Shown piece by piece: positions 27,737 to 34,627 of a DNA stretch of 64,000 nt; within the stretch, counting starts at the first letter, position 1, and every line of letters starts with the position of its first letter. A program made the translations under genes and the position numbers. The DNA is from Candidatus Anstonellaceae archaeon (GTDB taxonomy: Archaea > Micrarchaeota > Micrarchaeia > Anstonellales > Anstonellaceae). The notes below the pieces were generated by a model. It saw only the letters and a program-made list of their open reading frames with translations. It did no database searches and was not told the origin of the DNA. The stretch covers positions 1,425 to 65,424 of the forward strand of contig JAWAEW010000005.1 of the NCBI GenBank assembly GCA_038891035.1, read 5' to 3'.

Positions 27737-29293
27737 ATGGATTTGCTGGATTCTGTTCTTCAAAAAGCTTGGGCTTCCACATGCCGTGTTGTTTTGAGAA
27801 GAGAGCTTGGAAGTCTGGATCTTTTTCGCCCTTGGCTACTGGAACATATCCCAAAAGTGGCTTGCAGGGATTCGGTTTATGGAAAGGTGATTCTTGCAAG
27901 GGATTGCTATCCAGAAGGAGCATCTTGCGTCCCACAGGATAGGGTAACAATCAACAAAGAATTTACTTTGAGCATAAATCAGATTAAAGACATAGATTCT
28001 ATTATTAGCGCATGCCTTGAAAGGTTTGAATATGTTGGAAACAAAGTTTTAGGAAACAGTGCATTTGTCCGAGACTCAGATATTGTAATTGATTCGCAAT
28101 ACGTAAACAGTTCAACAAACATCGAGGAGTCCTCATATATAGATTGTTCTTTCATGGTTAGGAAAGGTAGCAAATACTGCTTTGGCTCAGGCTATTGTGG
28201 CCAGTCAGAATTTTTGATACGAACAATTGGCACCTTCAACAGCAAATACTGCTTTGAGAGCTATTTTGTCACAGATTCCAGCTCTGCATACTTTTGTGAA
28301 AGCTGTCATGGGTGCAAAGAGATTATGTTCTGTTTTGGGCAGAGAAACTCTTTGTATAAGATAGGCAATCTCCAGCTTCCAAAAGACAAATATTTTTCCT
28401 TGAAAAGCAAGCTGCTTGAGGAGGTTTGCGATGAGCTTGAAAAGGAAGGCAGGTTTCCTGCACTATTTGAAATTGCTAAGGAATCTTCTGAGAGAATGGA
28501 AAAGTTGGAAATTGAAAGCAAAACAATCAAGCAGAATATGAAGATTATTGATAATGGATTTGAAAAAACTTCTAGGATCATACTAAAGCGCGGCCTTGGA
28601 CCTATAAAAGAATATGAAAATTGGCTTATGAACAATAGCCAGAACATTGCAAAAATTAAGAGTGCATTTGGAATGGAAGTAAGTATACCTTTATCATTTG
28701 CTTATTTTTCCTTTCTGCCAAAAGACAGAATAGTCAGTTTTGACGAGATGGAAAAAATAGGCCAGCAGTCGCTTTCCCAACAAGATATAGCAAGCATAAA
28801 ACAGTTGAAGCAAAAGATAGGTAAGATTGCATATTTCACCTCTGAATTTTATGCTGGCGAAAATGCAAACTATATCGACTCGCCAGTGGTCTTCTATGCA
28901 ACCAACGTATACAAGACTTATGATGCCACATATGCAGACAACATAGGCGCATCCTTCCTTGCCTTGAACTCGAAATTTATCTATGGAGGATTCCGCATAC
29001 TTGAATCCCAGTTCTCTATAAAGTGCTATAATTCACTTTACATGAACCGCTGTATGGAGATGGATTCGTGCAGCAAATGCTCAGATTCATACTTTTGCCA
29101 CAATTGTGAAAGCTTGGCGGATTGCATGTTCTGCTTTTCTGCAAAAGGAAAGAGAAATATGATAGGGAACATGCAGCTTTCAAAAGAAAGATACGCAAAA
29201 ATAAAGGATTCTCTTGTGCAACAGATGGCAGACGAGCTTGAGAAGACGAAGAGGCTGCGTTTTAGCATATACTTTGAAAGGGGAAAAGATTAG
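27737..29293 (+). CDS. Cys-rich tandem-module protein, paralogue B (uncharacterised family)
   Basis: MDLLDSVLQKAWASTCRVVLRRELGSLDLFRPWL. CESCHGCKEIMFCFGQRNSLYKIGNLQLPKDKY. Second module ends CSKCSDSYFCHNCESLADCMFCFSAKGKRNMIGNMQLSKERY. Confidence 0.7.
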   Translation: MDLLDSVLQKAWASTCRVVLRRELGSLDLFRPWLLEHIPKVACRDSVYGKVILARDCYPEGASCVPQDRVTINKEFTLSINQIKDIDSIISACLERFEYVGNKVLGNSAFVRDSDIVIDSQYVNSSTNIEESSYIDCSFMVRKGSKYCFGSGYCGQSEFLIRTIGTFNSKYCFESYFVTDSSSAYFCESCHGCKEIMFCFGQRNSLYKIGNLQLPKDKYFSLKSKLLEEVCDELEKEGRFPALFEIAKESSERMEKLEIESKTIKQNMKIIDNGFEKTSRIILKRGLGPIKEYENWLMNNSQNIAKIKSAFGMEVSIPLSFAYFSFLPKDRIVSFDEMEKIGQQSLSQQDIASIKQLKQKIGKIAYFTSEFYAGENANYIDSPVVFYATNVYKTYDATYADNIGASFLALNSKFIYGGFRILESQFSIKCYNSLYMNRCMEMDSCSKCSDSYFCHNCESLADCMFCFSAKGKRNMIGNMQLSKERYAKIKDSLVQQMADELEKTKRLRFSIYFERGKD

Positions 29294-29335: not shown

Positions 29336-30202
29336 GTGAAAGCGGCAACTTTGTTTGCAGCGGTATTTCTTTTGACGGTTGGATTCGTATTTGCAGGGAC
29401 TGCAAGCTGCCAAGATGGAACCAAGCACGGCAGTTGCTCAAAGGTCAATCCTGGACTTTACTGCATAGACGGAAAACTTCATCCTTATGTTTCGTTTTGC
29501 CCTTGTAGTGCGGTGCCTGGATGGAAGCAGCAAGGAGAAGGCGAGAATGCAGTTTGTGTTCAAGAAAAATGTGCTGATGGGACTGAATCTGGCAAATGCT
29601 CTTCTGATAAGCCGAAGCAGTGCGTAGGAGGTCGGCTGATTGACAACGCAACTGCATGCGGCTGCCCGCCAGGCAAAATTATTAGCCAAAACGGACTTAC
29701 ATGCGTATTTTTGCCATGCAATGATTCTGGAGTGAGCGTGCCAGAAGGGACCTGCTCACCAAAATCAGCAGGCAAGAAATGTGTTGAAGGCAAGCTAGTA
29801 GATAAGGCTTCTGAGTGCCCGTGTGGCGCTGGAACAGTCAAAAAAGGAGAGCGATGTGTGGTGCTTTGCGAGGATGGAACAGAGGTTGGAAGCTGCTCTC
29901 CTTCTAAGCCAAAGGAATGCGTGCTTTCTGGGCTTGGAGTTGGAGTTTTGCTTGATAACGCTTCCAAATGTGGCTGCCCCCCAGGAATGGAGACACAAGG
30001 AAACAGGTGCATAGAGGCTGGCGCAAGTTTGCCTTCCTTGTCGGGAGGGGCAGAAACTTTGACAGAGACTCTGAATGGAAGTGGCACTGAACCACAGCAA
30101 GAAGAAGCGCAGCCGCTTTCATGCTTCTGCTGCCCTTCTGCATTTGCAATCCTGCTTTTGCTTGGGATGATATACAAAGCTAAAGATAGCCCCACATTGT
30201 AA
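29336..30202 (+). CDS. Secreted Cys-rich repeat protein (4 tandem ~48-aa six-Cys repeats) with C-terminal hydrophobic anchor
   Basis: GTG start and signal peptide (MKAATLFAAVFLLTVGFVFAG). Repeats built around DGTxxGxCSxxKPKxCVxGxLxDxAxxCGCPPG. Several N-x-S/T sequons. Ser/Thr/Glu-rich linker. C-terminal CCPSAFAILLLLGMIYKAK. Confidence 0.6.
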   Translation: MKAATLFAAVFLLTVGFVFAGTASCQDGTKHGSCSKVNPGLYCIDGKLHPYVSFCPCSAVPGWKQQGEGENAVCVQEKCADGTESGKCSSDKPKQCVGGRLIDNATACGCPPGKIISQNGLTCVFLPCNDSGVSVPEGTCSPKSAGKKCVEGKLVDKASECPCGAGTVKKGERCVVLCEDGTEVGSCSPSKPKECVLSGLGVGVLLDNASKCGCPPGMETQGNRCIEAGASLPSLSGGAETLTETLNGSGTEPQQEEAQPLSCFCCPSAFAILLLLGMIYKAKDSPTL

Positions 30203-31481: not shown

Positions 31482-31555
31482 TTGAATGATTTTGCAGAAA
31501 TTGTTTTTAGTGAGTGTGTTACATTTGGAACTTGTCGCCTTTTTTGAAAATAGGT

Positions 31556-31604
31556 GTTAATTTGGTATTAACATTTAAAAACCCTATGTTAATATGATAT
31601 TAAC
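31556..31604 (+). promoter_or_regulatory. hsp20 promoter with two palindromic operator-like sites GTTAAT-N5-ATTAAC flanking a TTTAAAAA TATA box
   Basis: GTTAATTTGGTATTAAC (31556-31572), TATA TTTAAAAA (31574-31581) and GTTAATATGATATTAAC (31588-31604). SD GGAGGTGA before ATG 31630. Confidence 0.45.
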
Positions 31605-31629
31605 AGTAGCATCTTGCGGAGGTGAGAAT

Positions 31630-32052
31630 ATGGTTGGGCTAGTGAGGTGGAAACCGTTCCATGACTTTGGGCTCGAAAGATTCTTTGAGGATGACTTCCC
31701 GTTCTTTCCTGGAAGATCTGGATTTACCGACCTTGCAACTGATGTCTATGATGATGGCAACAACATCGTTGTCAAGATGAATGCACCTGGCTTCCAGGGA
31801 GATGCGATTGACATAACCTTTGAAGGCAACTATCTGAAAGTGACTGGCCAGCGCAAAGAAGAGAAAGAAGAAAAGCAGAAAAATTACTACTGCAAAGAAA
31901 TCCACTCTGGCTCATTTGAACGCCTAATAAGACTCCCAACTGCAGTAAAGGCAGAAAAGGCAGAGGCAGAATACAAGGACGGGGTACTCAAAATAGTCGT
32001 CCCAAAAGAAGAGCCCAAAGGCACTAAAGTAAAAGTAAAGGTCAAAAACTAA
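31630..32052 (+). CDS. Small heat-shock protein (Hsp20/alpha-crystallin family)
   Basis: Alpha-crystallin domain (DVYDDGNNIVVKMNAPGF...GVLKIVVPK). Confidence 0.9.
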   Translation: MVGLVRWKPFHDFGLERFFEDDFPFFPGRSGFTDLATDVYDDGNNIVVKMNAPGFQGDAIDITFEGNYLKVTGQRKEEKEEKQKNYYCKEIHSGSFERLIRLPTAVKAEKAEAEYKDGVLKIVVPKEEPKGTKVKVKVKN

Positions 32053-32278
32053 GCACCCCCTTTTTTTATTTTAGTTTTATTTAACACGAACAAAAAAGCA
32101 TGTCTGGAGACTGAAATTCTGCTTTCTCTACTCTTGTTCAGGCAAAGTTAGGAATTTGAAGGACATTGGCTTGCTTGCTGCTTTCTGCCAACTGCTCTCA
32201 TAGGCAGCAGAGTTTGCAGCTTTCAGAAAAAAGTAGCAACCCAAAACTAATTTATATCTAAAATAGAAAAAGAATCTT

Positions 32279-32980
32279 ATGTCCAAGCGAACTTTTAGGA
32301 TAAAAAGTGCCACTTTTGGCATTTATCACCATGACTGCCAAACATCGGAGTCTTCAGAAAAATTCCCAGGGATAACACTGAAGCAGCTAAGCCCAGTAGT
32401 ATATCTTTCAAAAAAGAACTCTAAGCTGGACTACAGCCTTATTTGGGAGGTAGAGGCAAACTCACCATCAGAACTTGAAGAATATTTGCAATACGTGAAA
32501 AATGACCCGAGGACCATTCGCCTTCGCATACTTGAGAAAGGGAGGAATAATGCACTTATCTTGCTTCGCTTTCTTGGTACAAGCTCAACTTACGGCACAA
32601 TAATTTCCAACAAAGTAACTCTTACTTCCTTAGCCAGAGCAAAGGAAGGCTTTGAAACTTACAGTATTATCTCTGAAAAACCAAACTTCGTAAAAAAGAT
32701 GCTTGAAGAGCTATCGTGCATAGGCCAGGTAAAGATCTTAAGAGTCAGTGATTTTGACCCCAAGAAAGATCTTTTTGTGCCATCAATCACTGAGAAACAG
32801 GCAGAGGCGCTCAAGATCGCTCTTATTAACAACTACTACTCTTGGCCGAAAGGAACTACGCTGGAGCGCCTTGCTTCAATTGCAAAAATAAGCAGAAGGA
32901 GCATGCAGGAACGCCTAAGAAGGGCAGAGGCAAAACTACTTCCAGTCCTTCTGAAAGACTATCTGAAAAAGAAGCTGTAA
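32279..32980 (+). CDS. Transcriptional regulator with C-terminal HTH_10 (bacterio-opsin activator-like) DNA-binding domain
   Basis: ITEKQAEALKIALINNYYSWPKGTTLERLASIAKISRRSMQERLRRAEAKLL matches the HTH_10 consensus. The N-terminal ~150 aa is a putative sensor domain. Confidence 0.65.
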   Translation: MSKRTFRIKSATFGIYHHDCQTSESSEKFPGITLKQLSPVVYLSKKNSKLDYSLIWEVEANSPSELEEYLQYVKNDPRTIRLRILEKGRNNALILLRFLGTSSTYGTIISNKVTLTSLARAKEGFETYSIISEKPNFVKKMLEELSCIGQVKILRVSDFDPKKDLFVPSITEKQAEALKIALINNYYSWPKGTTLERLASIAKISRRSMQERLRRAEAKLLPVLLKDYLKKKL

Positions 32981-33040
32981 TTGGACATATGCCCAAAATA
33001 TCATTTTAAGTGCCGTTGGCGTTTTATTTTATGTGAAAAC

Positions 33041-34627
33041 ATGGAGAGGTCAGATGATATTCAAGATATTATTGAAAAAAGATGGAGCGGCACCTGCAAA
33101 GTTGTTTTTGGGCAGGAAATTGGATCTATCAGGGATTACACCCGATGGCTAAAGGAAAAGATTGAGCCTATTGTAATTCGCACCTCGTCTATATCTGGAA
33201 AGAAGGTTGCATATGCGATTCCGAACTATTCAGAAAACTCAAAGTGGATTGGACTTGAAGAAATAGGAAACAGCAAATTTCCTCCTCTTTCCATAAATGA
33301 AATAAAAGACATAGAAAGTATTGTGTCTGCAATCAAAGATAGGATCTATTACACTGGCAACATAGTCCTTGGAAATTCAGGCTTTATATACGAAAGCTCT
33401 AGCATTTCAGATTCATTTTACATGTACCATACAGGAAAATTTGGAGATTCTAAATACCTCGCATTTTGCACCCTTGGAAGGCTTTGTGAAGATTGCTTTG
33501 GATGCAATGGGATTGGTGAAAGCCACTTTTGCATTAAAGCATATGAAACTTTCAGAGTCAAGCGGTCATTTGAATTTTGGATGGGACAGAATTGCTCGGA
33601 CTGCTACTATACTCATAATCTTTCTGGATGCTCTGATTGTATTTTCTCGTTCAATCTGAAAAACAAACACTTTGCAATTGGAAATTGCACATTACCAAAA
33701 GATAAATACCTCAGCATAAAAAATTCTCTTCTTGAGCAGCTGAGAGATTGGCTTATTAGGAAGAAAAGGGCACCTTCGTTGCTGGACCTTATTCCACTTT
33801 CAATCCCTCCAAAATTGCCAAGACTGGCAGCAGAAAGCAAGAATTCAAAAGTAAGCGACCTTGGACCGATAGAGGAAGGGTTTGCGAAAACTTGCCAAAT
33901 AATCTTTGGAAAAAGACTTTCAGGCAAGCTGGACGATTATGCTGATTGGCTTTCCAAGCATGTCAGAAAACACCAGAAACTTCACTCTGCAATAAGCGGG
34001 GAGCAGGTTTGCAGATGGGATTACTCAAATTATTTCATGCTGCCCCAAGAAAGAATTGTTTCCCAGGGTGAGGCTCTTGCGCTCGGTGAAATCCTTGCTC
34101 TTTCAAAAGATGAGATAGATACCATCTCTCTCAACAATGTAGGGGGAGTTTTAGGCAAAATTGCATTTTTCTCAACAGAATATGCAGAAGGGACAAACAT
34201 AAATGTAATAGATTGCCCTACTCCAACTCAGTCCTCAAACTGCTACCGCACTTCCCCTGTTGTCTATTCGAAATATTGCGCTTATTCTTTTTGGCCAAGA
34301 AGCTCACAGTATATTTTTGGCTCAAATGCAATATTTGACTCTGAGTTTTGTATCCACTGCTACCATTCAGTAAAGCTTAAGCGTTGTTTTGAGATGGATT
34401 CCTGCAACTCATGCTATAACTCATATTTCTGCCACAATTGCGAAAATGTAAGCGACAGCATGTTTTGCTTCAACGCCAAAAACTTGCGCTATGCAATAGG
34501 AAATGTAGAGGTCGGGCAGGAACAATTTCTTAAAATAAAAAATCTGCTTCTCTCAAAGATTCTTGCAGAGCTTGAGGCAAAGAAAAAATTCGATTTAAAC
34601 ATATACAATATAGGACAGAAAAAATAA
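33041..34627 (+). CDS. Cys-rich tandem-module protein, paralogue C (uncharacterised family)
   Basis: ATG at 33041 (MERSDDIQDIIEKRWSGTCKVVFGQEIGSIRDYTRWL), 60 bp after the HTH_10 gene stop. CSDCIFSFNLKNKHFAIGNCTLPKDKY. Second module ends CNSCYNSYFCHNCENVSDSMFCFNAKNLRYAIGN. Confidence 0.7.
   Translation: MERSDDIQDIIEKRWSGTCKVVFGQEIGSIRDYTRWLKEKIEPIVIRTSSISGKKVAYAIPNYSENSKWIGLEEIGNSKFPPLSINEIKDIESIVSAIKDRIYYTGNIVLGNSGFIYESSSISDSFYMYHTGKFGDSKYLAFCTLGRLCEDCFGCNGIGESHFCIKAYETFRVKRSFEFWMGQNCSDCYYTHNLSGCSDCIFSFNLKNKHFAIGNCTLPKDKYLSIKNSLLEQLRDWLIRKKRAPSLLDLIPLSIPPKLPRLAAESKNSKVSDLGPIEEGFAKTCQIIFGKRLSGKLDDYADWLSKHVRKHQKLHSAISGEQVCRWDYSNYFMLPQERIVSQGEALALGEILALSKDEIDTISLNNVGGVLGKIAFFSTEYAEGTNINVIDCPTPTQSSNCYRTSPVVYSKYCAYSFWPRSSQYIFGSNAIFDSEFCIHCYHSVKLKRCFEMDSCNSCYNSYFCHNCENVSDSMFCFNAKNLRYAIGNVEVGQEQFLKIKNLLLSKILAELEAKKKFDLNIYNIGQKK

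Follow-up and report, generated by a model that had tools for sequence, protein, structure and literature searches.

Two copies of one palindrome bracket the TATA box of the small heat-shock protein gene hsp20 in Candidatus Anstonellaceae archaeon (Micrarchaeota, DPANN), raising the question of which regulator, if any, would read them and what it would control. The window, by which we mean the whole 64-kb stretch of DNA that was analysed, contains GTTAAT-N5-ATTAAC exactly at 31556–31572 and at 31588–31604, with centres 32 bp apart and the consensus TATA box TTTAAAAA between them at 31574–31581, just as an earlier note on this DNA had described. The arms are longer than the 6 bp given in that note. 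They extend over 7 bp in both copies (TGTTAAT-N5-ATTAACA at 31555–31573 and 31587–31605), and the second copy is a perfect 8-3-8 palindrome, TGTTAATA-TGA-TATTAACA. The 19-bp consensus form of the operator that flanks TTTAAAAA, TGTTAATA-N3-TATTAACA, is equivalent to GTTAAT-N5-ATTAAC. Across 31550–31632 the window reads ataggTGTTAATTTGGTATTAACA-TTTAAAAA-cccta-TGTTAATATGATATTAACA-gtagcatcttgcGGAGGTGAgaatATG, and the features of the promoter and gene are as follows.

31555–31573, no strand: operator site 1 (S1), TGTTAATTTGGTATTAACA; the right arm, ATTAACA, runs up to the TATA box, at the BRE position.
31574–31581, + strand: putative TATA box TTTAAAAA, between S1 and S2, assigned a function from its position and consensus.
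31587–31605, no strand: operator site 2 (S2), TGTTAATATGATATTAACA, over the expected start region.
31601–31606, + strand: expected transcription start, ~24–28 bp 3′ of the TATA centre, the usual archaeal TATA–start distance.
31618–31625, + strand: Shine–Dalgarno (SD) sequence GGAGGTGA; GGAGGTG or GGGGGTG is kept in the leaders of hsp20 orthologues.
31630–32052, + strand: hsp20, small heat-shock protein of 140 aa with its ATG at 31630; Pfam HSP20, PF00011, E = 1.8e-21.
32061–32082, + strand: oligo-T tract after the hsp20 stop, TTTTTTTATTTTAGTTTTATTT, a likely archaeal terminator.

The Pfam match bears out the earlier naming of the downstream gene as a small heat-shock protein, and its product is 100% identical to NCBI MEM4348334.1 from Candidatus Anstonellaceae archaeon. 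The oligo-T tract, if it terminates transcription as its sequence suggests, would make hsp20 monocistronic; upstream lies a divergent purD-like ATP-grasp gene. Whether such a palindrome might simply be frequent by chance had been raised as an objection, and the counts answer it: the 64 kb hold two exact matches where dinucleotide shuffles predict 0.01, and two or more were never reached in a shuffle. With up to two mismatches allowed, four matches are observed against 2.47 expected in 64 kb, both extra matches being at chance level. We found no other regulon members in the window, whose large open reading frames (ORFs) are housekeeping genes without chaperones, and no further sites.

To follow the element through related genomes, we fetched the three nearest hsp20 homologues by protein homology (86, 76 and 73% identity; loci L081, L082 and L083). 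The arrangement S1–TATA–S2 is present before hsp20 in all three of these related Micrarchaeota contigs, where the neighbouring genes are partly or wholly different and the flanks have diverged. The corresponding promoter blocks are given below.

L081, hsp20 promoter block: TGTTAATTTGGTATTAACA tttataaacccta TGTTAATATGATATTAACA
L082, hsp20 promoter block: TGTTAATAATGTATTAACA tttttaaatata TGTTAATATAATATTAACA
L083, hsp20 promoter block: TGTTAATATCGTATTAACA tttataaatatt TGTCAATATCATATTAACA

In the alignment of the hsp20 upstream regions, the invariant columns cluster in the palindromes, the TATA box and the SD and ATG, with few in the flanks. The element travels with hsp20 and not with the locus. 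A family search of L081, L082 and L083 revealed no recognisable DNA-binding protein beside hsp20. The unannotated neighbours of hsp20 (200 aa in L082, 263 aa in L081, 281 aa in L083 and others) were considered as regulators and rejected, since they match no DNA-binding family and are not homologous to one another.

Comparison of the window with L081 also shows how the surroundings of hsp20 have changed. A Cys-rich protein of 282–288 aa with a signal peptide and without a Pfam family lies beside purD in both (window 29336–30202, + strand; L081 1915–2763). Relative to L081, the window has gained a 518-aa Cys-rich gene and a pair consisting of an HTH_10 gene and a 548-aa gene, and it is without the 263-aa ORF that separates purD from hsp20 in L081. 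Beyond the four close Micrarchaeota orthologues, the next hsp20 homologues, at ~45–57% identity, include a protein of Candidatus Parcubacteria (CPR; P0118) and many 135-aa proteins on long contigs among the matches listed (L210), which hints at exchange of small heat-shock protein genes between DPANN archaea and CPR bacteria.

A scan of metagenomes with the twin pattern led to a second class of promoter and to a candidate regulator. The relevant contigs among the matches listed, L097 and L159, carry S1–TATA–S2 before the gene for a 150-aa protein that is not hsp20 and that has a winged helix of the ArsR/TrmB type. Six further members of this winged-helix (wHTH) family were then fetched by protein homology only, without reference to the motif (L204–L209). 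In all six genomes the wHTH gene, encoding ~150 aa, comes first in a wHTH-grpE-dnaK operon, and a twin operator with 31-bp spacing surrounds a TATA-like box directly upstream of it; with L097 included, operators lie immediately upstream of the wHTH gene in seven of seven genomes. The regulator promoter of L205, for example, reads TGTTAATATTGTATTAACG tttttaaatctt TGTTAATAATATATTAACA gtggtttt ATG. The arrangement reaches further than the earlier note had described. Across the Micrarchaeota loci compared, the palindrome stands in two or three phased copies around the TATA box of just two classes of promoter, those of hsp20 and of wHTH-grpE-dnaK, and two metagenome-assembled genomes (MAGs) hold both: GCA_026414185.1 (L206 and L083) and GCA_026413765.1 (L207 and L081). 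It had also been said that the repressor could not be recognised in the window, and this stands, as a protein search found no homologue of the candidate wHTH protein there. The nearest genome with the wHTH regulator shown is the sister Anstonellaceae MAG GCA_038895505.1 (L205; MEM4633–4634xxx proteins), whose HTH_10 protein is 87% identical to that of the window. The search gathered 111 family members, 58–90% identical over most of their length (for example, MEM4634057.1), and every named source is a member of the Micrarchaeota.

Several further features were noted at the regulator operons. An unannotated ORF of 106–111 aa, with no Pfam match on record, lies between grpE and dnaK in L204 (9820–10149), L208 (11123–11443) and L209 (11057–11392); L205 and L207 lack it, and none of the fetched wHTH-grpE-dnaK operons showed a dnaJ. 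The intergenic region of the operon is shared with a divergent gene for a lipoprotein-like protein of 186–194 aa (signal peptide and Cys, with an AFGPG...PN motif), found at the following positions.

L204, 8001–8561, − strand: divergent lipoprotein-like gene.
L206, 699–1259, − strand: divergent lipoprotein-like gene.
L207, 9295–9867, − strand: divergent lipoprotein-like gene.
L208, 9292–9873, − strand: divergent lipoprotein-like gene.
L159, 201–785: divergent lipoprotein-like gene.

This neighbour was considered as the regulator and set aside: it is syntenic with the regulator operon, but it does not occur at the hsp20 loci, nor is it a DNA-binding protein. One to three genes further upstream, lonB lies in conserved synteny. 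An unrelated palindromic repeat family was also encountered, which shares the GTTAAT-N5-ATTAAC core by coincidence. It comprises a 52-nt class, GTTAATGGGAGATTAACTCCCATTAATTAATGGGAGTTAATCTCCCATTAAC, and a 46-nt class, has a REP- or MITE-type look suggestive of another organism, and is spread over well over 100 contigs among the matches listed, from few metagenomes (L085–L203; Ga0209780, Ga0209363, Ga0066187, Ga0209782, Ga0209366 and others).

The specificity of the element was assessed with a symmetrised weight matrix built from 16 sites, on which known sites score 22–29 bits. In the window S1 scores 25.5 bits and S2 29.3 bits, and no other position reaches 12 bits, with 0.07 matches per 64 kb in simulated sequence. 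About 170 kb of control Micrarchaeota loci gave no site of at least 12 bits except one marginal match of 13.5 bits, and the matrix found no other site in the ±10-kb flanks of the regulator loci, the nearby lonB promoter included. An hsp20 of 49% identity, on a contig of different gene content, is likewise without an operator site in the matrix scan.

Information content, computed across nine non-redundant promoters, is concentrated in the arms, at 1.8–1.9 bits per position, compared with 0.6–0.7 in the central 3 bp, a mean of 1.51 in the spacer that holds the TATA box and 0.5–0.8 in the flanks. The arms of S1 reach 1.86 bits per position against 0.82 in the upstream flank, and those of S2 1.8 against 0.48 downstream. 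A centre of 3 bp that is free to vary between fixed arms is typical of protein contacts, and the spacing of 11 bp between arm centres fits a wHTH dimer in successive major grooves. The operators are AT-rich and invariant across genomes of 42–53% GC.

The geometry of the promoter is equally constrained among the 11 promoters compared (4 of hsp20 and 7 of the wHTH gene). S1 is kept in all 11; the TATA box is kept as TTTATAAA, TTTTTAAA or TTTTAAAT in all related promoters; and S2 lies 6–24 bp downstream of the TATA box in 11/11, where the start is expected. S1 and S2 lie three helical turns apart throughout, at 31 bp in nine of the promoters and at 32 bp in those of the window and L081. From the end of S2 to the ATG there are 23–28 nt at hsp20, with an SD sequence, and 8–18 nt at the regulator gene, the latter implying a short leader. 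In several regulator promoters a third, weaker operator-like site, scoring up to 20 bits, lies 20 bp upstream of S1 and could be a cooperative auxiliary site.

L097, 913–931: third operator-like site.
L204, 8615–8633: third operator-like site.
L207, 9922–9940: third operator-like site.
L209, 9913–9931: third operator-like site.

The hsp20 promoters keep no more than a TGT at the corresponding place (−22 to −20 from S1; window 31533–31535), and the T at −22 is invariant in 9/9.

An AlphaFold2 (AF2) model of the wHTH regulator, built from a 45-sequence alignment (pLDDT 83.6), predicts a canonical winged helix of the H-H-H-wing type followed by a 45-residue C-terminal helix. The elements are a helix at residues 17–27, helices at 39–50 and 58–65, the recognition helix at 69–82, the wing at 85–94 and a single helix at 99–143. 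Two features mark the family, an invariant N-terminal LCRxMRLMSERDTDATLPQVLK and a lone C-terminal helix that is long and charged. The residues N68, R69, T71, H74, H75 and R78, in or next to the recognition helix, are invariant across the 45 sequences, matching the invariance of the operator arms across genomes. The family member P0199 has a Pfam HTH_5 domain (PF01022, E = 2.5e-5, 24.5 bits against a cutoff of 22), and scores of 17–21 bits on NCBIfam HTH_metalloreg, where the cutoff is 55, place the protein with ArsR/SmtB at the superfamily level only. A PDB profile search returned PH1932 (1uly; 1.3e-4, HTH region) and ArsR (6j0e; 1.4e-4), and Foldseek matched the model to ST1889, MarR, SmtB and TrmBL2, all generic wHTH relatives.

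The protein also lies outside the Phr family. On the NCBIfam model NF053602 (Phr_regulator), five regulators scored 10.6–17.7 bits or had no match against a cutoff of 320, and the matches cover only the HTH (model positions 16–61 of 191). Scores so far under the cutoff indicate that the wHTH regulator is not a member of that family. Phr itself (2p4w) is reached at E = 0.058 by the PDB profile search, in the HTH only, and ranks 14th by Foldseek with a TM score of 0.25–0.34. The best PDB profile match of the family is PH1932 of Pyrococcus horikoshii (PDB 1uly and 2cwe), a match that may reflect no more than generic HTH similarity. A 2023 study lists P. furiosus PF1932 as a predicted transcriptional regulator with a Phr motif and strong heat induction (PMC10746257).

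The same pair of sites before wHTH-grpE-dnaK and before hsp20 probably marks the operator of a self-regulating archaeal heat-shock repressor that has hitherto been undescribed. More specifically, we consider the twin 19-bp palindromes to be operators of a dimeric ~150-aa wHTH repressor, encoded elsewhere, at the head of wHTH-grpE-dnaK, and we put the probability of this reading at roughly 0.7. In the absence of stress, one wHTH dimer would sit on S1, overlapping the BRE position and abutting the TATA box, and a second would sit on S2, covering roughly −17 to +2 at the expected start; both would face the same side of the DNA, separated by three helical turns. The bound dimers would block binding of TBP/TFB and/or recruitment of RNA polymerase (RNAP) at hsp20. 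S1 would exclude TFB/TBP and S2 would exclude RNAP, extending what has been reported for Phr and HSR1. The site pair before the operon of the regulator would provide negative autoregulation and couple hsp20 to the Hsp70 system. Under heat or proteotoxic stress, repression might then be lifted in one of two ways: the repressor may itself be thermolabile, as has been proposed for Phr and HSR1, or the chaperones encoded with it may titrate it, for which HspR with DnaK is the precedent. The heat-shock label of the regulon comes from the identity of its genes, and its predicted extent from the two promoter classes found in the loci scanned.

Four other readings have to be weighed. The operators could be real and yet be bound by another, unlinked transcription factor, with the wHTH gene merely co-regulated. 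We infer the wHTH protein to be the binder from the logic of autoregulation, and other small HTH genes (HTH_20/HTH_5, MarR and PadR) lie near the operon in L204 and L207–L209, so that such a factor is conceivable. We nevertheless think it unlikely, because the operators stand directly before the wHTH gene in all seven genomes, this gene is the only one for a DNA-binding protein in the regulated units, and its recognition helix is as invariant as the operator arms; autoregulation of this kind is common to the known heat-shock repressors HrcA, HspR, Phr and HSR1 (PMC9133787).

The wHTH repressor could also be replaced by an activator or a dual-mode factor, with S1–S2, or S1 alone, acting positively, in that a factor bound 5′ of the TATA box would bring in TFB/TBP after heat shock. 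S1 lies directly upstream of the BRE/TATA region, where archaeal activator sites sit, and the third upstream site in several regulator promoters would suit an activator too. Yet S1 overlaps the BRE position instead of lying upstream of it, S2 lies over the expected start, where only repressive sites are known, and an activator of its own operon, unchecked by any repressing site, would set up runaway feedback. Positive action at these sites is thus quite improbable.

Even closer to hand is a DNA-binding protein overlooked by the earlier note: an HTH_10 (Bat-type) protein (PF04967, E = 4e-13) is encoded at 32279–32980 on the same strand, 226 bp downstream of hsp20, and might bind the palindromes. 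The pool of HTH_10 orthologues comprises 84 proteins, all from Micrarchaeota, and the 22 located in genomes (L001–L022) have neither hsp20 within 4 kb nor a palindrome. Instead, 19 of the 22 loci have the gene next to a homologue of the Cys-rich 548-aa gene, which assigns it to a different conserved two-gene module. The three other operator-bearing hsp20 loci lack an HTH_10 neighbour, and in the window the hsp20 and HTH_10 genes are separated by the oligo-T tract and a separate TATA-like element. With linkage to hsp20 or the operator in 0/22 and Cys-rich pairing in 19/22, the HTH_10 protein is a decoy, unrelated to the operators, and very improbable as their repressor. In the window the module consists of the HTH_10 gene (32279–32980, + strand; 233 aa with a C-terminal HTH_10 domain) followed by the Cys-rich gene (32981–34627, + strand; 548 aa). 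Cys-rich proteins of this kind, ~520–550 aa in length, have many CxxC-like motifs and no Pfam or NCBIfam family, and a second paralogue in the window (27737–29293, + strand) is without an HTH partner.

We give almost no weight to the palindromes acting as an RNA thermometer, hairpin or DNA structure, or being remnants of a mobile element: they can form hairpins (the fold of 31550–31640 pairs S1 with S2 at −20.6 kcal/mol, z = −1.66) and their core pattern recurs in the abundant, unrelated metagenomic repeat, but S1 and the greater part of S2 precede the expected start and would be left out of the transcript, the predicted leader is of ordinary stability (z = −0.02) with an SD sequence outside the palindromes, S2 ends 8–18 nt before the regulator ATG with no SD evident there, the central 3 bp vary between fixed arms, and the repeat differs in spacer and flanks and has no TATA box.

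How the proposed wHTH repressor relates to known systems can be judged against the two archaeal precedents. These two, Phr and HSR1, repress both hsp20 and their own genes from palindromes at or just 3′ of the TATA box and start, and the Phr site overlaps the start and blocks RNAP recruitment (PMC9133787, PMC2396416). HSR1 recognises CTAAC-N5-GTTAG, and Phr a 29-bp site with TTTA, TGGTAA and AAAA (PMC2396416, PMC9133787). Reviews name these two as the only archaeal heat-shock transcription regulators, both from hyperthermophilic Euryarchaeota, and none from Crenarchaeota (PMC9133787, PMC10653856, PMC10746257). In the literature searched, we found no description of a heat-shock regulator in Micrarchaeota or DPANN archaea, nor of the operator reported here.

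The system predicted here would share several traits with Phr (Pyrococcus furiosus PF1790, Thermococcus) and HSR1 (Archaeoglobus fulgidus AF1298). Autoregulation and control of hsp20 would be common to them, the evidence here being the motif (4/4 hsp20 promoters, 7/7 wHTH gene promoters and two MAGs with both), and a similar architecture, an N-terminal winged helix with a C-terminal helical region, is predicted for the wHTH regulator by the AF2 model (PMC9133787, PMC2396416, PMC10653856). The half-site letters GTTA and TAAC recur, and S2, lying over the expected start, may match the position of the single palindrome of Phr and HSR1. The differences are as clear. The arms of the HSR1 operator are inverted in orientation relative to GTTAAT-N5-ATTAAC, and the operator here is of neither the HSR1 nor the Phr type; Phr and HSR1 have one site 3′ of the TATA box, whereas here two or three sites are present with S1 and S2 bracketing it; grpE-dnaK is missing or not so regulated in their organisms and belongs to the predicted regulon here; and their hosts are hyperthermophilic Euryarchaeota, in contrast to the mesophilic-type DPANN archaea considered here. 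The earlier proposal that twin repressor operators occlude TBP/TFB/RNAP in the manner of Phr or HSR1 therefore gains comparative support for its operators (hsp20 in 3/3 and wHTH-grpE-dnaK in 6/6), and its likeness to those regulators is functional only, given the regulator's result on the Phr family model and the opposite orientation of its arms.

A second resemblance is to the bacterial HrcA/CIRCE system, in which the repressor gene heads a regulator-grpE-dnaK operon and is autoregulated through an inverted repeat in its promoter, with that repeat reused at a second chaperone promoter. CIRCE is TTAGCACTC-N9-GAGTGCTAA, and the operator described here is unrelated to it in sequence, lies in an archaeal TATA promoter and has hsp20, not groESL, as its second target. 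HrcA is absent among the Pfam and NCBIfam results for the wHTH regulator. The predicted system thus falls outside both Phr/HSR1 and HrcA/CIRCE, sharing its predicted function with the former and its operon order with the latter. In the HspR/HAIR system of Streptomyces and Helicobacter, the gene for HspR sits inside the dnaK operon, which HspR represses by way of inverted repeats and with DnaK as corepressor, and RheA of Streptomyces albus is a thermosensing repressor of the divergently transcribed small heat-shock gene hsp18. HspR is a MerR-family protein encoded by the last gene of its operon and RheA belongs to a different family; neither resembles the wHTH regulator or the operator described here. 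ArsR/SmtB and MarR-type repressors give the best sequence and fold matches of the wHTH regulator and bind palindromes of ~19 bp as dimers, but the regulator lacks a recognisable metal- or ligand-sensing module.

We tentatively suggest, while holding it somewhat less probable than its negation, that the wHTH protein represents a third archaeal heat-shock family, in Micrarchaeota (DPANN) and independent of Phr and HSR1. It would be a lineage-specific wHTH repressor in the HrcA slot of a bacterial-type grpE-dnaK operon, with a minimal regulon (hsp20 and its own Hsp70 operon) controlled from twin or triple operators on either side of the TATA box, and it may be tuned by DnaK/GrpE titration rather than by intrinsic thermolability. 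The prediction of the cis-element and its regulon is well supported by the sequence comparisons, and the operator matrix could help in annotating the heat-shock regulons of Micrarchaeota MAGs. For a third lineage beyond those of Phr and HSR1, the comparisons provide a candidate regulator–operator pair, a ~150-aa protein and 51 bp of DNA, that is cheap to test in a group with tiny genomes and no cultivated genetic system. The pair would also show how a horizontally acquired, bacterial-type Hsp70 operon may be wired into archaeal TATA/BRE-type transcription, with a gene order convergent on hrcA-grpE-dnaK.
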